From contig JAISZL010000062.1 of assembly GCA_031269245.1 (NCBI GenBank), forward strand, positions 5,016 to 69,015: a stretch of 64,000 nucleotides of DNA. The letters run 5' to 3'. The notes below the pieces were generated by a model. That model did no database searches, was not told where the DNA came from, and saw only the letters and a list, made by a program, of their open reading frames with translations. Position numbers and translations under genes: made by a program. The number at the start of each line of letters is the position of its first letter. Within the stretch, counting starts at the first letter, position 1. This DNA is from Synergistaceae bacterium (lineage in GTDB: Bacteria; Synergistota; Synergistia; Synergistales; Synergistaceae). Positions 4,334 through 60,576 of the stretch are shown piece by piece.

Positions 4334-5209
4334 ATGAGTAAATACCCCATTCTGCTAATATTTCGCGAAGGAAGATCAATTTATTTCATGTATTTCATGG
4401 GAGGCGCTAAGGTGGTGGATGAGGGAAAACTCATATTTCGCAGCATGATGGCGTTGTTCGGAGCGCTGGGCCGGTTTCCGCGGACTCGCTTTTCCGGCGA
4501 ATTTCCGGGATTGGCCCTTTTCGACAGCGGGGTGGGCTCGAGTTACGAGAACTACGCGATGCTTTCGCCTCGCGCGGCGCCGAGCGCTCTGGCGGACGCG
4601 GTGGAGTTCGGGCTGGATTTTTTCGCGCGCACCGGCCGGTCTCACGTGTGGCCGATATTCGAATGGATCCCGGATGATATATGCGCTATTTTGGAGAGGG
4701 CGGGGCTCAGGAGGGACGAGGATTTTTACGCGATGGCGGCCGACGTTCGCTTGGACAGCGGCTGCGGCGCGCCGTCCGGCGTAGTCGCGGACGCCTCTGT
4801 CAGGGAGGGTTGCGCCGTCCGCGAGTGGGCGTCGTGCGCGTGGTTCGGTTTCGAATCCGGCGAGCCCTTCCCTGAGGAGTACGTCGAGTACGCCCAAAAC
4901 ATGGCGAGCCTCGGCGAAATTTCCCTCATCGCCGCGCGCCTGGCGGCATCGGGAGAGGCGCCGCCAGGCGAGATTGCCGCTACGGGCATGTCGTTCGTCT
5001 CCGAGGGGATCTGGGGCATATACAACATATCGACGCTCCCGAAATATCGCAGGCGCGGTTTGGCCATGGCTGTGGTGCGCGAGGCGATGCGGCTGTCGCG
5101 GAGCTCCGGCGCGGAGCGAGCCGCCCTGCTCGCCACCCCGGAGGGACGGCCGCTCTATCTTCGCTGCGGCTTCGCGGATGAGGGCGCGGTGAAAATTTTC
5201 GTCCGATAG
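4334..5209 (+). CDS. GNAT family N-acetyltransferase
   Basis: C-terminal acetyl-CoA motif YRRRGLAMAVV...LLATPEGRPLYLRCGF. The true start is probably downstream of 4334. Confidence 0.65.
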   Translation: MSKYPILLIFREGRSIYFMYFMGGAKVVDEGKLIFRSMMALFGALGRFPRTRFSGEFPGLALFDSGVGSSYENYAMLSPRAAPSALADAVEFGLDFFARTGRSHVWPIFEWIPDDICAILERAGLRRDEDFYAMAADVRLDSGCGAPSGVVADASVREGCAVREWASCAWFGFESGEPFPEEYVEYAQNMASLGEISLIAARLAASGEAPPGEIAATGMSFVSEGIWGIYNISTLPKYRRRGLAMAVVREAMRLSRSSGAERAALLATPEGRPLYLRCGFADEGAVKIFVR

Positions 5210-6501: not shown

Positions 6502-8697
6502 TCATTTCCGCGTCATCGTCCAAACGCCGTCCCAATTTTGCGGCGGGTTTTGCGCGAGTTTCATCGCGCGGTTGGCGAATATGCCATACAGAGTTCTTTC
6601 GGGATAGTCGCGGCTCATTTCGTTGAACGCCGCTTGGGCTTCATAAAAATTTCCAGCCAGGTAAATTTCCACCGCCGAGGACCATCTTTCGAACTCTTCC
6701 CCGCGCGTCCGCCATTCCTCCGACCGCATTGGGGCGTAGATTTTTATCGGCTCGCTCTTCCCTTTCACCCTTATCGTGTCGAGATACTGATACGCGAAGG
6801 ATTTCCCCGCCTCGCTCATGGTGCCACCGCTCGTCACTGCCGGCACGCCGTACTCGGGGCACAATCCCTCCAGGCGCGATGCGAGGTTCACGTTGTCCCC
6901 TATCAGTGTGTAATTCACCAGATCGCGCGAGCCCATGTTGCCGACATACGCCGTGCCGGTGTGTATGCCCGCTCCCATTCGCAACGTCAGGCCGAAATCC
7001 GCCTTCAGTTCGGCGTTCAGGGCTTCAAGGCGCTCGCCCATCGACAGCGCCGCCTCCAACGCGCGGCTGGCGTGATCCGGTGTCTCGACCGGGGCGTTCC
7101 AGAACGCCATCAGCGCGTCGCCTATGAATTTGTCCAGCGTGCCGTCGCTCTCCTGCACCAGCGCCGTCATCGGCGTGAAATAGCGGTTCAGCAGGTTCAC
7201 CGTCTGCCGCGGTGTGAGCCGCTCGGATATCGACGTGAACCCCCGTATGTCGGTGAAAATTATGGACAGCGTCCGTTCCTCGCCGGCCAGCAGATCGCCC
7301 TTCTCCAGCATCACGCGGTTCGCCACCCTGGGCGAGACGTAACGCGAGAAAGTCGCCTTGATGCGTTTCTTCTGCCTGTTTTCCTGCCAGAAGCGCAGGA
7401 CAAGGGTCAGCGCGCCGCTCATCGCGACCGTCAACACCGCGTACATCGGCGACACGAAATAGCCTTTCGTGAAAAGATACCTCGCGAGGCATATAGGCGT
7501 GCCCGCCATGCCCGCCGCGAGCGGGACGTACAGTACCGGGGAGGCGAACGCGAACAGCGCCGCGGAGAGGATTCCGGCCATGAAGATATACGCCAGTTGC
7601 ATGTCGGCCGTCCATGAGGGCATGACGATCGAATTTCCGGCGAGCAGCGCGTCAATGACGGCGGCGTGGACTTCCACTCCGGGATAGACTCTGTCCAGCG
7701 GAGTGGCGCGAATGTCGAGCAGTCCGGCCGACGATGTCCCGACGAAGGCGATCCTGTCCAGCAGTTTGTCGCTGGGGATTTTCCCCTTCAGCACGTCCGC
7801 GGCACTGTAGTAGGGATATGTCCTGCTCGGCCCGATGAAGGGGATATACATCTCGCCGCGCGGGTTCACGTTCGCGCCTAAGCGCCCCATTAGCACGGAT
7901 TCCAGTCCGTCGGGGCCGGACGTGACCATTATGTCGGACGTCCCGGCGGCGGTCATCAGGGCGCGCAGCGCGAGCGACGGGTAAATGTACTCGCCGGCCC
8001 GGAGTATCAGTGGGATTTTGCGCATGATGCCGTCGGGATCGGGATCGATGTTGATGAAACCCACAGCCGAGTTCGCCCTAAGGGATGGGAGAGGCAGGAT
8101 GGCTCCATTCGACGACGACAGGCGCGGTTCGTACGGAATCGCGCCAGGACGTTCCCTCAGATGGATTTTTAACGCGTGAGCCCCGTCAGGCGCTTCGGCT
8201 TCGGCGGCGGAGCTTGCGTAAGCCCCCAGAACGACGGGTGATTTTGCCGCCGCGTCCGCGAACAGGGCGTCATAATCGCGCAACTGGTCCGGCAATCCAG
8301 TGAAATCCACGCTTATGCCGCAGTCGCGCCTGAGATACGACGCCACCTGTGACGGCGAGGAGTTGTCGGATTCGGCGAAAATTATGTCTATGCCGATCGC
8401 CGCCGCGCCGTAATCACGGAGCGCGTTTACGAGGTCGGCGACGAGATAGCGCGGCCAGGGCCACTGGCCAAGCTCGGAGAGCGACGCCTCGTCTATGTCG
8501 ATTATGACGGGGACGTCCGACGGCGACGATGCCGCGCGCAGGGGGAGCAGCATGTCGTATATCCTGAAATCGAGCCGCGTGAGAGTGGCAGGCCGCGAGA
8601 CGCAGATCACGGCCATCGCCGCGATCACGAACGCGCCTACGGTAAACGCGGTGAAGGCTCTGCCGCGGAACTGTCCCGCCGCCATATATTCCGTCAT
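6502..8697 (-). CDS. CHASE2 sensor domain-containing class III adenylate/guanylate cyclase
   Basis: N-terminal TM, a large periplasmic domain, then 3 TM. Cyclase motifs IIFTDIRGFTS, DKFIGDALMAFWNAP, GDNVNLASRLE. TPR-like tail. The start overlaps the upstream stop. Confidence 0.85.
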   Translation of the reverse strand: MTEYMAAGQFRGRAFTAFTVGAFVIAAMAVICVSRPATLTRLDFRIYDMLLPLRAASSPSDVPVIIDIDEASLSELGQWPWPRYLVADLVNALRDYGAAAIGIDIIFAESDNSSPSQVASYLRRDCGISVDFTGLPDQLRDYDALFADAAAKSPVVLGAYASSAAEAEAPDGAHALKIHLRERPGAIPYEPRLSSSNGAILPLPSLRANSAVGFINIDPDPDGIMRKIPLILRAGEYIYPSLALRALMTAAGTSDIMVTSGPDGLESVLMGRLGANVNPRGEMYIPFIGPSRTYPYYSAADVLKGKIPSDKLLDRIAFVGTSSAGLLDIRATPLDRVYPGVEVHAAVIDALLAGNSIVMPSWTADMQLAYIFMAGILSAALFAFASPVLYVPLAAGMAGTPICLARYLFTKGYFVSPMYAVLTVAMSGALTLVLRFWQENRQKKRIKATFSRYVSPRVANRVMLEKGDLLAGEERTLSIIFTDIRGFTSISERLTPRQTVNLLNRYFTPMTALVQESDGTLDKFIGDALMAFWNAPVETPDHASRALEAALSMGERLEALNAELKADFGLTLRMGAGIHTGTAYVGNMGSRDLVNYTLIGDNVNLASRLEGLCPEYGVPAVTSGGTMSEAGKSFAYQYLDTIRVKGKSEPIKIYAPMRSEEWRTRGEEFERWSSAVEIYLAGNFYEAQAAFNEMSRDYPERTLYGIFANRAMKLAQNPPQNWDGVWTMTRK

Positions 8698-10715
8698 CCG
8701 CCGGCGGCGGTCTCCTGGAACCTTGCGTATATTTCGGCCAGCAGCGCCTTCATGCCAAGCATGTCATCCACGAGGGCCGGGTCGAAATGGCGTCCGGACT
8801 CTTTTTTCAGCAGGCCCAGCGCGTCGCCGAAACTCCATGGCTTCTTGTAACACCTAGGGGAGACCAGTGCGTCGAACACGTCCGCCACCGCTGTTATCCG
8901 CGCTTCCAGTGGGATGTCCCCGCCGGACAGTCTCCCCGTGTCGGACGAACCGGCGTAGCCTGAGCCGTCCCATCTCTGGTGGTGATGCAGAGCTATGTCG
9001 TAGGCGCTCCGCGCTATATCGCCGGGTTCTTCGGCCAGTATCGACGCGCCCTTTTCCGTATGTCCGCGCATTATCCTGAATTCATCGTCCGTGAGGCTAC
9101 AAGGTTTTTTCAATATCAGATCGCTAATCCCGACTTTCCCTATGTCGTGCAGCATGGCGGCGAGGCGTATCCGGCTCTTTCCCACGCGTATCTCGTCGAT
9201 GGGGCGTCCTTCGCCTTTCGCCCGGGCGTGGTACAATTCGGAGGCTATCGCCCCCACGCGCTCGGCGTGCGCGCTGGTCTCGCTGGGGTCATGGACGCTG
9301 GCCATACGCAGTATGCTGTAAATCTCGCGTTTTTCGGCCATGCTGCGCTCGATTATGCTTCCCACCTCGCGCGCGAGAATCCTGACGTTGTGCGCCATGT
9401 TCAGAGTGAAGGGACACGGGAGGCCCGTGCGCGGATCGATGCTGTTTATCACCTGCATCACGCCGGCCACGCCGCCCGTATTGTCGAAGAAAGGTATCAC
9501 GAGCATCGAACTAGTGTAATAGCCGCTCGCACGGTCAAACGAATCGTTGAAGGAGTACGGCGCGCCCGGCGGAAGCCTGTGAACGTCGTCGATCACGAGC
9601 GGAGTCCTCGTCGAGGCGACATAGCCCGCTATGGAAGTCTTGGAGATCTGTATCCTGATATTCGCGTAAATATGTTTGTGCGCGGTGTCCACCGGGAAGA
9701 GCGTGTCGTTGTGCGTATATGAAAATACCAGTTCGTCCTTGTCGCGCAGGTAGATAGTCCCCGCGTCCGCGTGAGTTATTTCGCGGGTTTTGGCCAAAAT
9801 CCTGTCGAGCAGCGCGTTCTCGTCGCTGTAGCGCGACAGTTCGTCCAGAAACAGCAGCAGCCAGTCGCTGCCGTGGCGCTTGAATGGTACCGGGCCGAGA
9901 GGAGTGAAGCGCATCCCTTCGCGCGCGACGTAGGCGTTTACGCCGCCGTCCTCCGCGATGAGCGCGAGCGTCTGATCGAGCCTGTCGAGTTCCTGGTCGG
10001 AGCGCACCGGGTCGTGGTGCGTCAGCACGAGATTGCGCACGCCGCTCACGTTCGCGGCTTCGATCCAGTCCTGCCAGCGCGAGTGTCCCCAGCCGGGGCG
10101 GTAATCGTTCCAGCCGTAGGCGGCGTCAACCACCGCTATGTCCGCGCCGCTCAAAAATTCCGCCGCCGCGGCGATGCTCTCCTTTCCGCTGTCAATCTCG
10201 TGATCGCCGCTGTAAACGAAGAGCGCTCCGTCCGCGCTCGCGCGGAAGCCAAGCCCACCGCCCGGATGGTTCATGGCCGCCGCCGCCACCGTTATCCCGC
10301 TCCCGCTGGAAGACGGCACGGTGGTCACGTCGCCCGGCCCTATGAGTTTTATCCTGACGTCGCCCGTCAGTTCGCGGAAAGGGACCGGGAAAAATCCGCA
10401 CTGGTACATATGTTCGGGAAGGTATTCGAGCCATGCGGGAAGATACAGATTTGTAACCCACTTAGGCGAATGTATCGGCATGAAGAACCACAACCCGAAA
10501 ATATGATCCGCGTGGCCGTGTGAGATGAAGACATGACACTCGCCGCTCTCCGGCAGGCGCGCCCCGGCCTCGCGGATGCCAGTGCCGGCGTCGAAGTAAA
10601 TCCGCGCGCCGCGCCCGGCATTAAGCTCGACGCAGGCCGTGTTGCCGCCATAAAAAACGGTATCCGGCGACGGATTGGCGATGCTGCCGCGCACTCCCCG
10701 CAGTATTACCTCCAT
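8694..10715 (-). CDS. MBL-fold hydrolase - GAF - HD-GYP three-domain protein
   Basis: HGHADH (HxHxDH) near the N-terminus, central GAF-like region, C-terminal HDIGKVGI ... HHQRWDGSGYAG (variant of HHExxDGxGYP). No TM segments. Confidence 0.8.
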   Translation of the reverse strand: MEVILRGVRGSIANPSPDTVFYGGNTACVELNAGRGARIYFDAGTGIREAGARLPESGECHVFISHGHADHIFGLWFFMPIHSPKWVTNLYLPAWLEYLPEHMYQCGFFPVPFRELTGDVRIKLIGPGDVTTVPSSSGSGITVAAAAMNHPGGGLGFRASADGALFVYSGDHEIDSGKESIAAAAEFLSGADIAVVDAAYGWNDYRPGWGHSRWQDWIEAANVSGVRNLVLTHHDPVRSDQELDRLDQTLALIAEDGGVNAYVAREGMRFTPLGPVPFKRHGSDWLLLFLDELSRYSDENALLDRILAKTREITHADAGTIYLRDKDELVFSYTHNDTLFPVDTAHKHIYANIRIQISKTSIAGYVASTRTPLVIDDVHRLPPGAPYSFNDSFDRASGYYTSSMLVIPFFDNTGGVAGVMQVINSIDPRTGLPCPFTLNMAHNVRILAREVGSIIERSMAEKREIYSILRMASVHDPSETSAHAERVGAIASELYHARAKGEGRPIDEIRVGKSRIRLAAMLHDIGKVGISDLILKKPCSLTDDEFRIMRGHTEKGASILAEEPGDIARSAYDIALHHHQRWDGSGYAGSSDTGRLSGGDIPLEARITAVADVFDALVSPRCYKKPWSFGDALGLLKKESGRHFDPALVDDMLGMKALLAEIYARFQETAAGG

Positions 10716-10716
10716 A

Positions 10717-11994
10717 TCAGAAACTCCATACGAGGCCTAGGGTGACGAGATGTCTGCCGTATTCGCGCAGAGATGAGTTGGACTCGTTGTGAGTATAGCT
10801 GTAATCCATCTCCGCGCTCCACACTTCGTTTATCCTGTATGCCGCTCTCAGCCCCGCGCGAAAGCGTCTGTCGCGGCGATCGGCCGTTTCGAGCACGGTT
10901 GCCGGCGCGCCGTAATTTTCCTCGGCGTAGAGCAGCGACGGGGAAATTTCCCAGCGATTTTTGAGCTTGAAGCGCATCGAGGTCGAAACTTCCCAACCGT
11001 CCCAGGACGCGCGGGCGGTTTCGGCGTCGGCCCACAGGCCTCGGGCGCCGACGATCAATTCGTGTCCCCGTTCGCCGAAAACGAACCGCGCGTATTGCCC
11101 TATGAAGGAATAAGTCCCGTCGTAATCGCCGTTGCGGACGTAGTCGCGCCGTTCGAGGCCGGCGCGCGTCACGAGATGGAACGAGCCGGAGAGTGCTTTA
11201 GTGTACGTGAGTTCGGCTCCTAAGGAGTAGACCGTGTTGTAAAAATCATAGTCGAAAACCTCGCCCTTGAGCCGCAGGTCGAAGAGTGATGCGGGCGCGG
11301 AGTGGCGAATTCCGCCCGCGATACGGTACCACTGCGAGTAATCCTGATCCAGCGAGCGCAGTCCGGCCGAATCGAGCGCGCGGATATAAAAGTGAGCGTC
11401 GCCAACGACCCACCAGGGACCGCCGCGCGATGTGCGGTACGCCGCGTCGTAGTCGCCGGCGATCCATCCGCCTAAGCCTCCCTGTTCCGTGGAGTCGCCG
11501 GGTATGGTGACGATGAAATTTCCCAGCGCCAGTCTGTCGGAGCCGGGGCCCTGATTGCCGTTGCTGTCGGACATGAGGCCGAAGCGGAGCTTGCCCTGGG
11601 ACTGGAACCTGCTGTACGCTTTTCCAGCTCGGGAAGCCCAAGCGGATATGTCGTCCGGCGCGAGGGACGCGTCGCGTGAGAGATATCGCGTCGCCATGTC
11701 GGAGTCGCCGATGGACATGTAAGCGTTCGCGATCTCGCGGTAGAGGCGAAATTCCGCCGGATATTTGGCGATGAGGCGCTCATAAGCCATTATGGCCTGA
11801 TACGGGCGTGAGGACGACGCGGACGCGCGGGCGAGGCCGAAGTTCACCTCGTCGCTGCCGGGGTCTTCTCGCAGGAGTGCGAGATATATTGGGTAAGCCT
11901 CCTCCGCGCGCCCCGCAAGCAATAATTCCGCCGCGCGGGCCAAGTCGGATGAAACATCCGCAAACGCCGGCACCGTAAATAGACACATAAACAA
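10717..11994 (-). CDS. TPR + C-terminal beta-barrel outer-membrane protein (Slam/DUF560-like architecture); 5' end disrupted by a homopolymer frameshift
   Basis: TPR-like N-terminal third. Alternating beta-strand pattern ending ...VTLGLVWSF (terminal Phe OMP signature). The TTG-start ORF keeps only a stub signal peptide, MFMCLFTVPAFA. Confidence 0.65.
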   Translation of the reverse strand: MFMCLFTVPAFADVSSDLARAAELLLAGRAEEAYPIYLALLREDPGSDEVNFGLARASASSSRPYQAIMAYERLIAKYPAEFRLYREIANAYMSIGDSDMATRYLSRDASLAPDDISAWASRAGKAYSRFQSQGKLRFGLMSDSNGNQGPGSDRLALGNFIVTIPGDSTEQGGLGGWIAGDYDAAYRTSRGGPWWVVGDAHFYIRALDSAGLRSLDQDYSQWYRIAGGIRHSAPASLFDLRLKGEVFDYDFYNTVYSLGAELTYTKALSGSFHLVTRAGLERRDYVRNGDYDGTYSFIGQYARFVFGERGHELIVGARGLWADAETARASWDGWEVSTSMRFKLKNRWEISPSLLYAEENYGAPATVLETADRRDRRFRAGLRAAYRINEVWSAEMDYSYTHNESNSSLREYGRHLVTLGLVWSF

Positions 11995-12020
11995 AAAAAC
12001 TAGACAAAAAAATTTAAGGC

Positions 12021-12037
12021 GGGGGGGGGGGGGGGGG
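12021..12037. repeat. G17 (C17 on the coding strand) homopolymeric tract
   Basis: Direct read: ...aaggc g(17) cacccc... Confidence 0.95.
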
Positions 12038-12094
12038 CACCCCTGGATATTTTGTCATTTTAAATAATTTATTCATCTCCATTGCCGCTCACCC

Positions 12095-13465
12095 CTAATT
12101 TACCGACGTGACGGAGCCGTCCGGCAGCGGGCCGTCAAATCCGACGGTATCGAATTCTACACGAAAACGATAGTCGGTATTGCCGTTTTGCTGCAAAATC
12201 AAAGCGCCGTGAACGGCGTCACCCACGTCCGAATAACCGGAAGGCGCGGATACTTCCAAAAGTGTTGCGTCTAGATCCAACATATCATGCTCTTCGACTG
12301 CCTCTTGTTGTGTCGTTATATGGCCGCCCGAATTCGAAGGGTCGAAACGGATCTCCGCGGTTCCGGAGTCAAACATGCCCTCGCCGCCGGTTAAATCGAA
12401 GAGCCCATACAACCCCGTCACGTAATCATCACCCTCAATTGATAGTATATGAAATTTTCCGCTCGCTACGCCGGAGGTAATAGCCCCGGAATTCAGATTT
12501 ACGTCGAAGCCGTAAGAGAAGCCATCAGATATCTCAACAGACACGACGAAAGACAAAGTCGAATTCATCTCAGTCAAAGGAATGTTGTGATACGTCGTCC
12601 CCGCGTTTGCGGAGAACTCCACATGCGCCAATTCCGGCCCCGCCGGGATCGGCGCCGGAATTGGCTCCGTCGGGACTGGGGCCGGAATTGGCTCCGGCTG
12701 GGAAACCGCGACTTCCGCGCCGAACGGGCGCTCCATGATATCTGCCGCCGGATTCACCGCGATATCCCCCTCCCCAGGCGCCGCGCCCTGCGCTTCCTGC
12801 CAGACTGGCGGCAGTCCCGAGACCTCGCCGCCGCTAGGCAAGACTATGGCGTTCGTGTCCTCCTCCTCCTCGCCGGGGGCGAGCGGCACGATTTCCGTCT
12901 CTCCATCTCGGAGCAGGGTTATCTTGAAGGTCTCGGGCACGGCGATGCCGTTCACTACGACCGTTTTGTCGCTGTTGAAAACTTTGACCGTGGTGTGCCT
13001 GTCGTCGGCCTCGACGTATAAAATCGTGCCGCGGATCCCGATCGTCGCGAGAGGCGTCGTGAGTTCGAAGCCCTCGGGGTTGCTCTCCGTGATCGTCCCT
13101 GTGATTATCCGCACCGCGCCCTGAAACAGATTTGCCGCGAAGTTGGACTCCGAGCCCGCGTCCGCGTATGAGGCCATGTCAAACGCCGACCCCGGCGCGA
13201 TGTTCACCGTGCTGCCGTCGCTGAAGAGAATCTGAATTTTTCCGCCCTCTCCCGTGAGTATGGAGTCCGACACGAAAACCGGGTCTTTGAGCGTCAGCGG
13301 AACGCGTGAGCCCGCGCGCACGACCTCGACCGGCCCCGACGCCGCGATCACGGTAGCTATCGGCTCGGGCGAGGCGCCAAGCGCCGGGCTCCCAAGCGCC
13401 GCCCACAAAACGCACGCCACGATGAAGAGACGCCCCAAAACAGTCGCAAGCAATTTTTCGTTCAT
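12095..13465 (-). CDS. FecR-domain secreted protein with Pro-rich linker and beta-rich C-terminal domain
   Basis: Signal peptide MNEKLLATVLGRLFIVACVLWAALGSPALGA. FecR-like VEVVRAGSRVPLTLKDPVFVSDSILTGEGGKIQILFSDGSTVNIAPGSAF. GGGAGAGAAG SD before ATG 13465. Confidence 0.75.
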   Translation of the reverse strand: MNEKLLATVLGRLFIVACVLWAALGSPALGASPEPIATVIAASGPVEVVRAGSRVPLTLKDPVFVSDSILTGEGGKIQILFSDGSTVNIAPGSAFDMASYADAGSESNFAANLFQGAVRIITGTITESNPEGFELTTPLATIGIRGTILYVEADDRHTTVKVFNSDKTVVVNGIAVPETFKITLLRDGETEIVPLAPGEEEEDTNAIVLPSGGEVSGLPPVWQEAQGAAPGEGDIAVNPAADIMERPFGAEVAVSQPEPIPAPVPTEPIPAPIPAGPELAHVEFSANAGTTYHNIPLTEMNSTLSFVVSVEISDGFSYGFDVNLNSGAITSGVASGKFHILSIEGDDYVTGLYGLFDLTGGEGMFDSGTAEIRFDPSNSGGHITTQQEAVEEHDMLDLDATLLEVSAPSGYSDVGDAVHGALILQQNGNTDYRFRVEFDTVGFDGPLPDGSVTSVN

Positions 13466-13938
13466 AAACTTCTCTCCCATCATACCCGATTTTCACTGCT
13501 ACGTAATTATAGCAAGTATAACATAAACCTACAATTCCCGCAAAAAACAACCTCCATATGATCAAGCATTAATCGGAGAAAGGATATTCTTCAAATAACC
13601 CCGAAATGTTTCAATAGAGTGCGTGTGGAGAGGTAAGCGGAGCGATTTTGGCAGAAAATATTTTTTTCCTCGACGAAAGCCCCTTATTGTTGTATTCTTA
13701 CGAAAATATGCGGCGCCTTTTGAGGGTATTTGAGTATTGACATGGCGCGCAGGGCAAAAGATCTGATTTTTACGGCGCTATCGCGGTCTTTTGCCAGTAA
13801 GTCAGAGGTATTTCGAGAAACGCAAGGGTTTCCTCCGTTTAGGCGTCGTTTCGGGCGGCGTGAATGCCGGGCGTGTTTGAAGCGGATGAAGCTTGAGTTT
13901 CGCCAAAATACAAAAATCTTTTGTTGGGGGGCATAGGC

Positions 13939-14325
13939 ATGTTGTGGACCAAGTCGCTGGAAACCGGGATAGAAGCTATAGACAATCAGCACAAGGAGCT
14001 CTTTCGTCAGATAGATATTCTGCTGGATCCAGGGAAGGCGAATAGGGTGAGGGACACGCTGGATTTTCTCGAAAAATACATAGCGAAGCACTTTTCCGAC
14101 GAGCAGGGTATGCACATCAAGGCCAAGTACCCTAAGGCCGCGGAGCACAAGAGCTACCACGACAGCTACATAGTGGTCTTCCGTAATTTGAAAGGGAAAT
14201 ATCTCAAGGAGGGGCCGAGCCCGGCGAACAACATAGCCGTCAATAAAAACGTGATAGGATGGCTCAAGGATCACATACTGGTTCACGACAAGGATTTCGC
14301 GGAATATTTTAAGTCGCTGCCGTAG
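13939..14325 (+). CDS. Bacteriohemerythrin
   Basis: MLWTKSLETGIEAIDNQHKELF ... HFSDEQ ... WLKDHILVHDKDF iron-ligand His/Asp pattern. Confidence 0.85.
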   Translation: MLWTKSLETGIEAIDNQHKELFRQIDILLDPGKANRVRDTLDFLEKYIAKHFSDEQGMHIKAKYPKAAEHKSYHDSYIVVFRNLKGKYLKEGPSPANNIAVNKNVIGWLKDHILVHDKDFAEYFKSLP

Positions 14326-40332: not shown

Positions 40333-41550
40333 CTAATCCAAGCGCGCGGGATTCCGCGATTGCCGCTCCAATCTTTCTATGTCCATGTTTAGTTTCGCGT
40401 TGTCCGCGTATACTTTTACCTCGTCGTCGGGGTCGAGCCTGTACGCCTCGCTGAAGCGCTCGTGCGCCCCCGCCCAATCCTTTTGCGTCCAGAGGGCACG
40501 TCCCTCCTTCACGAGCTGCGCGGCCCTCTTCCTGTTGTCTTGGGAAGCTGTGACGGCCGGGTTTTCAGCGACGTTCGCGCTCTCAGCCAGGGGAGCGGCG
40601 CCTTCGGAGCCGGGCGCCGTTCGTATCGCCGATGCCCGCGGCCCGGATGGTTCCGCTACGGACTGCGTGATTTTCAGATACCCGCCGTACACCCAGCCCG
40701 CCTCGCCGTCCGCGCCGACCTTGAACCAGTGAAACCTGTCGCGCCCCGAGGAGTAGCGTTGCGACGCGCCTAGCGCCGTCCCTTTTGCGAGACGGCGGAG
40801 TATCTCTGACTCGGTGTTCGGCGCGGAGCGCATCCGGACGTTGTCTGCCGTAACCTCGACCGGCAGCGAGGCACTGAGGACGGCCACGCCGCTTCGGTCC
40901 CGGACGTCAAGGTCGCTGTAGCCATCCGAGTCGGGGGTTGACCACGCGTATGCCCGTCCATCGGCGGTAGGCGCGCCCTCCTCAGCGGCGGGGTTTTGTT
41001 CGTCCGGCGAGGTCTGGGCGGACTGAGTTTCGGAATCGGCGTATGGAATGGGCCCCGCCATGACTATTGGGTCATTCCCCGAAGGCGTATTTTCGGCCGG
41101 CGCGGGGGCATGTGGTGCCTCAGAGTCCTCCGGCTCCGCCGTTTGTATCGCCGAGGCGCCTCCTCCGGAGGGGCCTGATACGCGCGGCGGGGTGTCCCCT
41201 GAAAAATATCTGTAGCTGACGAATCCGAAGCAGCCGAACATGAGGAAGAACGCGAGCAATGTCGCGACCTTAAGCATCGAGTCCCTTTCCTCATGACGTT
41301 CTCTGTCCCCCCCCTCTTGCGCGCAGTTCACTTTTTTGAGCTTGCCGCCCTCCGCCCCGCACTCGTCGCAGAATCTTGCGCCGACGCGCATCTCGTTTCC
41401 GCAGTACGCGCAGAACATCGTCGAATCCTCAGACGGCTCGGCTCCGGTTGCCGAAAGTGTATGAACGCCTGCCTTAGTGCCGCATTTTCGACAAAAAATA
41501 TAATTTTTCCCCATAAGGGCGCCGCATTTTTGGCAAAACCTCTTTCCCAT
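40333..41550 (-). CDS. Double zinc-ribbon - TM - SH3b - TPR-like membrane protein
   Basis: CQKCG...CRKCG and CAYCG...CDECG. One TM segment. SH3b-like VRMRSAPNTESEILRRLAKGTAL...WFKV...GWVYGGYL. GGAAGGAG SD before ATG 41550. Confidence 0.6.
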   Translation of the reverse strand: MGKRFCQKCGALMGKNYIFCRKCGTKAGVHTLSATGAEPSEDSTMFCAYCGNEMRVGARFCDECGAEGGKLKKVNCAQEGGDRERHEERDSMLKVATLLAFFLMFGCFGFVSYRYFSGDTPPRVSGPSGGGASAIQTAEPEDSEAPHAPAPAENTPSGNDPIVMAGPIPYADSETQSAQTSPDEQNPAAEEGAPTADGRAYAWSTPDSDGYSDLDVRDRSGVAVLSASLPVEVTADNVRMRSAPNTESEILRRLAKGTALGASQRYSSGRDRFHWFKVGADGEAGWVYGGYLKITQSVAEPSGPRASAIRTAPGSEGAAPLAESANVAENPAVTASQDNRKRAAQLVKEGRALWTQKDWAGAHERFSEAYRLDPDDEVKVYADNAKLNMDIERLERQSRNPARLD

Positions 41551-60505: not shown

Positions 60506-60576
60506 CAGTTGGAGAAGGGGGGGGAACTCATGCTACAATGAACATCATTTTTTTGAAGGTGCGTTGTCCAGAATTC

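Follow-up and report, generated by a model that had tools for sequence, protein, structure and literature searches.

A 17-nucleotide C tract in the signal-peptide codons of a Slam-like outer-membrane protein gene, a candidate contingency locus in a Synergistaceae CHASE2 operon

A homopolymer of 17 cytosines (minus strand, 12,021–12,037; G17 on the plus strand) lies in the n-region codons of the signal peptide of an outer-membrane protein (OMP) gene in an uncultured Synergistaceae bacterium, and the copy of the gene in the window is frame-broken exactly at this tract. By "the window" we mean the whole 64,000-nt stretch of DNA that was analysed, the source of which is a short-read metagenome bin. 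From sequence comparison, we consider it probable, though well short of assured, that the C17 tract is a simple-sequence contingency locus, that is, a functional slippage switch. An initial annotation of this DNA had described the switch as currently OFF; this part of the claim is provisional, as it hinges on the exact base count in a 17-nt homopolymer. In what follows, we detail the evidence for the frame break and for the gene that it affects, place the locus in its operon, and weigh the proposed switch against a length error in the assembly, gene decay and recoding.

The gene immediately upstream, which encodes a FecR-like protein, ends on the minus strand in TAG at 12,097–12,095, and the ATG of the OMP gene (12,082–12,080) follows 12 nt after it. 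A Shine-Dalgarno-like AGGGGTGAG (12,088–12,096) overlaps that stop codon and is separated from the ATG by a 5-nt spacer, CGGCA. The ATG and the 14 codons that follow it (12,038–12,082; MEMNKLFKMTKYPGV), which include a second ATG at 12,076, make up the 5' coding end of the gene and lead directly into the tract. At the assembled length of 17 C the frame continues through seven prolines and terminates at TAA (12,016–12,014), yielding a peptide of 22 codons. Downstream of the tract lies the remainder of what would be the signal peptide if it were in frame (11,959–12,020), comprising R-L-K, the hydrophobic core FFCLVFLFMCLFTV and PAFA, with cleavage predicted before the D encoded at 11,958–11,956. 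Re-reading and scripting of this minus-strand anatomy (Shine-Dalgarno, ATG 12,082, C17, TAA) bore out the initial annotation, as did scripted replacement of the run by other lengths, in which 16 C (also 13 or 19) joins the frame of ATG 12,082 to the 425-codon ORF beyond. More fully, runs of 13, 16 or 19 C give a continuous OMP ORF of 453–455 codons in silico, and all other run lengths from 12 to 21 C lead to a stop within 21–28 codons. At 16 C the N-terminus of the protein reads MEMNKLFKMTKYPGVPPPPPRLKFFCLVFLFMCLFTVPAFA|DVSS. As assembled, the OMP ORF can open only within the hydrophobic core of its own signal peptide; the annotation had allowed a start at TTG 11,994 alone, and this codon is indeed present, but ATG 11,988, two codons later, is also possible. 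The public calls for this protein are N-terminally truncated and carry no signal peptide (NCBI, 408 aa, "carbohydrate porin"; IMG, 423 aa), a consequence of the frameshift within the gene (10,717–12,082).

On comparative sequence grounds, the true start of the OMP gene is ATG 12,082, upstream of the tract, since four orthologous Synergistaceae loci (L001/L009, L002, L003 and L008), all read at the DNA level, can be followed in frame from the homologous ATG through to the shared hydrophobic core and AxA|D site; the annotation's placement of the start codon is thereby supported. The OMPs of these loci are 71–78% identical to that of the window. In each of the four, an ATG stands 10–12 nt past the FecR-like stop, the Shine-Dalgarno position is occupied by a purine-rich equivalent of AGGGGTGAG, and the frame proceeds unbroken through a Lys/Arg-rich n-region, the core and the cleavage site into the mature protein. 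The homologous n-region reads MNKSFKDRKLPG-RLKFFC and similar among the orthologues, and the N-terminus of L001, MGMNKSFKDRKLPG-RLKFFC, matches the MEMNKLFKMTKYPGV-(P)n-RLKFFC of the window on either side of the tract. At the tract position itself the four orthologues have a short, variable, C-rich linker with runs of C4–C6 or none (TGCCCCACGGCCCCCC in L002, CGCCCCCTGACCCCC in L008 and nothing in L001); judged by this alignment, the tract is a lineage-specific expansion within a poorly constrained linker. The gene body, for its part, is under purifying selection, with a dN/dS of ~0.2 against each of the four orthologues and no other lesion in 425 codons. The initial annotation had named orthologues without any tract as evidence that would speak against a switch. 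Formally, this is what the four closest orthologues, with their C4–C6, present, and the switch is therefore not conserved in the family; the objection is offset by tracts of 16–18 nt in two other lineages, to which we return below.

The length of the tract is far above chance expectation. A scan of the 64 kb found C17 to be the sole homopolymer of more than 8 nt, the next longest runs being of 8 nt. Dinucleotide-preserving shuffles give an expectation of 0.02 for a 12-nt G run, and a simple composition estimate gives ~1e-4 per window for a G/C run of at least 17 nt. Among the 8-nt runs, a C8 lies at 41,307–41,314 and a G8 at 60,517–60,524, the latter between GGAGAA and ATG 60,530 at the 5' end of a 472-codon ORF, in or beside its ribosome-binding site. 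G/C tracts of at least 8 nt are hypermutable in Neisseria, Campylobacter, Helicobacter and Bordetella, and by analogy a G/C run of 16–17 nt would be hypermutable whatever its exact count. It nevertheless counts against a switch that the 64 kb contain only one such tract, which does not suggest a genome with many contingency loci. The tract was also considered as the site of an internal promoter, a terminator or a structured RNA, and each was rejected: no promoter-like site was found near it, the sole terminator-like match nearby is on the antisense strand (terminator-like matches across the region being at chance level), no Rfam family matched at the tract, and the RNA fold there is no better than that of shuffled sequence (z-score +1.6).

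The 425-codon ORF (10,717–11,994, minus strand) is intact and its product is, as modelled, an OMP with a TPR domain of seven helices and a 14-strand beta-barrel, a distant relative of Slam/DUF560 proteins. The initial annotation had recognized a TPR/beta-barrel OMP from the sequence, and both the Pfam TPR matches and the AF2 model agree with that assignment. TPR_19 and TPR_14 score above cut-off in the window protein, and SlipAM (Slam, DUF560, PF04575) reaches 20.4 bits against a gathering cut-off of 22. Within the family, SlipAM is matched by all eight aligned members (E <= 0.01, best 1.1e-8) and TPR_Slam by three of the eight. The AF2 model, built from the eight-sequence alignment, has a pLDDT of 88.4 and consists of seven helices (residues 14–127) followed by 14 long strands; the PDB folds closest to it are those of BcsC, which combines TPR and barrel, and of OmpG, a 14-strand barrel, and Slam is not represented among the 50 PDB matches listed for it. 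Given a Sec-type signal peptide when in frame and the predicted barrel, the protein is probably surface-exposed and faces the environment. The family is sizeable: a protein search returned the window's own product, MDR1471966.1 ("MAG: carbohydrate porin [Synergistaceae bacterium]"), with seven relatives, and a full HMMER scan recovered 1089 cluster representatives at E <= 1e-10.

The genes that surround the OMP gene on the minus strand form an operon in the order FecR-like, OMP, MBL-GAF-HD and CHASE2 cyclase. The first gene (12,095–13,483) encodes a secreted FecR-domain (LipL45-like) protein, with a likely start at ATG 13,465, as follows from the length of the protein annotated by NCBI; the third (8,694–10,715) encodes an MBL-fold, GAF and HD(-GYP-type) phosphodiesterase-like protein; and the fourth (6,502–8,697) encodes a CHASE2 protein with a class III nucleotidyl cyclase domain. 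Pfam matches include CHASE2 (PF05226, 1e-58) along with Guanylate_cyc, and FecR (PF04773, 2e-14). Both genes downstream of the OMP gene are intact and, as had been noted from the sequence, tightly packed: the OMP stop TGA is followed after one base by the ATG of the MBL-GAF-HD gene (TGA-N-ATG), and the MBL-GAF-HD and CHASE2 cyclase genes overlap by ATGA. The FecR-like protein was considered as a lipoprotein, and this was rejected; its IVAC motif is not conserved across homologues, and a signal peptidase I site (ALG|A) is therefore more likely. No Pfam cargo domain was matched in the FecR-like protein, and its AF2 model, beta-rich in the C-terminal half, is unreliable at a pLDDT of 52. A hemerythrin-like ORF lies upstream of the operon (13,921–14,325, plus strand).

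Bins of the Synergistaceae, Burkholderiaceae, Zoogloeaceae and Helicobacteraceae share this gene order, as do metagenome contigs, and the arrangement of CHASE2 with a secreted FecR-domain protein is kept at the Synergistaceae, Burkholderiaceae and Helicobacteraceae loci and at the metagenome locus L027. Several features of these loci merit mention in their own right. Two of the Synergistaceae loci (L001, 534–1097; L003, 207–770) carry a divergent 187-aa tyrosine recombinase of the Phage_integrase family 95–120 bp upstream of the FecR-like gene; the gene is absent at the same place in the window, and it could be an invertase that acts on the operon promoter region. In a Desulfovibrio locus (L014, 7331–7453) all that can be detected of the MBL-GAF-HD gene after the OMP gene is its first 41 codons (71% identity), and in a Helicobacteraceae locus (L016, 2160–2252) its first 31 (84% identity), with the CHASE2 cyclase gene directly next; these stubs look like deletion remnants. 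Lastly, the MBL-GAF-HD protein of the window (8,694–10,715) is ~61% identical to its counterparts in a Burkholderiaceae (L013, 7363–9399) and a Zoogloeaceae (L015, 2548–4554) locus, as against 41–42% for the adjacent OMPs, which suggests either horizontal exchange or a constraint that differs greatly between the genes of the operon.

If the tract does switch, we envisage the following sequence of events. The C17 would have expanded in the C-rich, poorly conserved n-region linker of the Slam-like OMP gene, and slipped-strand mispairing during replication would shift the run by ±1, as at known G/C tracts. With 16 or 19 C (ON), ATG 12,082 would be joined to the full Sec signal peptide and a mature protein of 414 residues. 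With 17 or 18 C (OFF), translation would end after 22 or 27 codons, and the gene body could start only at TTG 11,994 or ATG 11,988, giving a product that would lack the n-region and would not be exported. The assembled and presumably modal state would be OFF, and the population would be expected to hold a mix of ON (16/19 C) and OFF (17/18 C) alleles. Some 1.3 kb of untranslated mRNA would then lie in OFF cells ahead of the two tightly coupled genes, which may lower the phosphodiesterase and the CHASE2 cyclase by lost coupling or by Rho polarity; such polar control of the whole module is something that we infer only, from the arrangement of the genes. The switch would in this way stochastically remove the surface component of a trans-envelope cyclic-nucleotide signalling or secretion module, and perhaps its output as well. 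The selective agent may be one that recognises the surface component, for example phage or grazing protists.

The strongest in-silico argument that such tracts would be selected switches rather than accidents is their recurrence across lineages. In a Burkholderiaceae MAG (L013, JAISAG010000100.1), a C18 at 4742–4759 occupies codons 7–12 of the FecR-like gene, the first in the homologous operon. The gene opens with ATG AAA ACA ACA TAT TAT A, enters the C18 and meets a stop after 14–15 codons, and a run of 17 or 20 C would instead lead through MKTTYYTPPPPPVLTDFRKRFALCFFFLSLIATSFAQA... into a 372-codon ORF, restoring the signal peptide and the full protein. In a Zoogloeaceae MAG (L015, JAISWQ010000098.1), a G16 at 194–209 lies mid-gene in the FecR-like gene, which is likewise out of frame and would be restored by G15 or G18; this locus has a further run, C9 (1087–1095), in the gap that separates the FecR-like stop from the OMP start, ~40 nt before the likely ATG. 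The OMPs of these two loci are only 41–42% identical to that of the window and the tracts lie in different genes or positions, and the three tracts therefore arose independently. These are the only G/C runs of at least 10 nt in ~252 kb (the window and 23 loci), and all three fall within the first two genes of the operon, which make up ~15–20% of the compared sequence; the chance of this is roughly p = 0.003–0.007. Four loci added later (L027–L030, ~18 kb) contain no G/C run of at least 7 nt, and no in-frame poly-P or poly-G N-terminus was found among 149 other OMP-family representatives and 17 FecR-like matches. Individual candidates were set aside: the GGGGG of P0023 is not a tract, as mixed codons encode those glycines, and P0026, P0075 and P0173, in which the signal peptides are truncated, have no tract, the starts of P0075 and P0173 being mis-called. 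The FecR-like gene of L015 also contains, just downstream of the G16 (280–577), ten tandem 30-nt units (82% matches), translated as a decapeptide repeat rich in Ser, Gly and Pro, which give this gene another source of variability.

One regularity in these tracts bears on every explanation of them. All three are assembled one base above an in-frame length (17 vs 16, 18 vs 17 and 16 vs 15), a pattern that a simple random switch does not predict and that therefore speaks against one. The chance of a shared +1 state is 1/27 if phases are random and 1/8 if all three are OFF with random sign. The coincidence could reflect chance, a systematic +1 bias in length, or a biological state that slippage can rescue.

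The alternative that survives best, although we think it unlikely, is that the tract is real but was assembled at the wrong length, the true modal length being 16 (or 19) and the gene being intact and expressed. This would chiefly remove the "currently OFF" from our reading, as a 16-C run would still be mutable. A gene body that is intact and under purifying selection is what a length error would leave, and a systematic +1 bias would explain why three tracts stand one base over their in-frame lengths (p = 1/27). The source of the data is compatible with such an error. The protein accessions of the window suggest that it belongs to the same project as its sister MAGs (JAIRJQ–JAITXW), which derive from termite-gut metagenomes for which 2x150 reads were obtained on a NovaSeq 6000 and each sample was assembled separately with MEGAHIT at k = 21–119 (PMC11257099); the assembly being from short reads, accuracy to ±1 at 17 nt is not guaranteed. 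Against a length error, the 17-nt run is below every k-mer size used, so that no graph loop would arise. Moreover, the stutter that PCR and cluster generation produce at mononucleotide runs tends towards -1, sequencing by synthesis takes the length from a count of cycles, and we know of no mechanism for a +1 length bias. A grosser artefact, such as a poly-G tail from two-colour chemistry or a chimeric join, is rejected, since the sequence on either side of the tract is colinear with that of the orthologues; homopolymer contig ends were also absent among the contigs of the fetched loci.

The search for length variants in public data returned a single assembly of the locus. A metagenome scan with the OMP protein found no second copy, the same scan with the OMP alignment found only relatives at 36–44% identity, no record was returned by exact look-ups of four proteins of the window, and a second, word-indexed homologue search with the alignment added no new proteins. 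A cluster look-up recovered only one and the same 72,165-bp contig, as deposited at NCBI and at IMG, and the two copies therefore provide no independent check of the tract length.

Less probable again is decay, in which the C-rich linker expanded by accident and left a young pseudogene with no adaptive switching; we rate this as a poor prospect. It draws on the facts that the closest orthologues have no tract, that the OMP gene is out of frame as assembled, and that parts of the operon have been lost in other lineages (the Desulfovibrio and Helicobacteraceae loci with their 31–41 remaining MBL-GAF-HD codons). A pseudogene would nonetheless have to be reconciled with a gene body that shows no second lesion in 425 codons and a dN/dS of 0.2, and with intact downstream genes. 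A 17-nt run, moreover, would be expected to revert at high frequency, which makes inactivation by this route unstable, and three independent tracts in the first two operon genes (p ~0.003–0.007) are unlikely to be unrelated accidents.

The weakest alternative, to which we give very little credence, is recoding, in which one base over the in-frame length is the working state and a low, tunable amount of full-length product is made by +1 slippage of tRNA-Pro on CCC-C (tRNA-Gly on GGG-G in L015) or by slippage of RNA polymerase: all three tracts need the same one-base-fewer correction, but three cases are too few (chance 1/8 if all are OFF with random sign), no stimulatory RNA structure was found at the tract (fold z-score +1.6, no Rfam match), the orthologues need no recoding, and the tract lengths differ (16, 17 and 18). 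The routes themselves are familiar, as CCC-C is a +1-prone site that is sensitive to EF-P and m1G37, and homopolymer runs longer than the RNA-DNA hybrid promote transcriptional slippage. Extended to the operon family as a whole, the idea that the three one-base-over tracts in termite-gut-type MAGs represent a selected recoding state, with the homopolymer as a rheostat for the cyclic-nucleotide module, is a long shot.

Were the tract to switch as we propose, it would be a clear contingency locus in the Synergistota and in an uncultured insect-gut symbiont; to our knowledge, none has been described in either. It would also place a whole envelope-to-cyclic-nucleotide module under stochastic control, which goes beyond the control of an adhesin or a receptor. 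That bins of the Burkholderiaceae and Zoogloeaceae have tracts of their own suggests that this uncharacterised module is under strong, fluctuating selection in its habitat, for example by phage or grazing, and offers a handle on its function. Added interest lies in the Synergistaceae host, in a Slam-like OMP within a CHASE2 operon, in the convergence of the tracts and in their regularity of one base over frame.

Frame switching by homopolymers at the 5' ends of envelope-protein genes is textbook biology, and the proposed switch is best appreciated against what is understood in other bacteria. In Neisseria, pilC undergoes phase variation through a poly-G tract in its signal-peptide codons. The likeness is close: in both genes a G/C homopolymer lies in the first codons of an envelope protein, in the signal-peptide region, where a change of ±1 toggles (in the window, would toggle) the frame. 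The window tract differs in being longer (17 nt), in belonging to an uncultured Synergistaceae bacterium, and in its operonic position upstream of signalling enzymes. Gardnerella nanH3 has a poly-C tract of 8–14 nt after the signal peptide in all strains, with heterogeneity documented by clone sequencing (bioRxiv 10.1101/2020.09.16.300947). Here too the poly-C adjoins the signal-peptide region, most lengths yield short truncated peptides, and an out-of-frame annotation loses the signal peptide, as in NCBI's 408-aa call for the window protein; by contrast, the window tract is inside the n-region and is absent from the closest orthologues.

With respect to the product, the nearest comparison is to the Slam/T11SS proteins (PMC8406197, PMC12282271, PMC5449769), which share with the predicted OMP a periplasmic TPR domain, a 14-strand barrel and a secreted protein encoded adjacent; SlipAM and TPR_Slam are matched within the OMP's family. 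The window protein itself falls just short of the SlipAM cut-off (20.4 vs 22 bits), and it differs in its host (Synergistota rather than Proteobacteria) and in its neighbours, a FecR-domain protein and cyclic-nucleotide enzymes taking the place of TbpB-like cargo or TonB receptors. Secreted FecR-domain proteins have been linked with CHASE2 sensors elsewhere (PMC5192318, PMC5498481). The Burkholderia operons of this kind (PMC5192318) resemble the window operon in pairing a secreted FecR-domain protein with a CHASE2 sensor, and differ in their histidine kinase and response regulator output and in having neither an OMP gene nor a repeat tract. Finally, Sinorhizobium meliloti NsrA is an outer-membrane barrel protein that is required for signal perception by CHASE2 cyclases (PMC7529298, PMC13001267). 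An OM beta-barrel needed by inner-membrane CHASE2 cyclases, with a periplasmic FecR-domain protein in the same regulon, is the likeness here; NsrA differs in its length of ~1200 aa and its architecture, and its system is without phase variation. Homology of the OMP to NsrA is not supported, given the differences in size and architecture (PMC7529298) and a tblastn search of the plasmid collection with the window OMP, which gave no match. As a functional analogy only, the NsrA system may serve as a working model for the operon.
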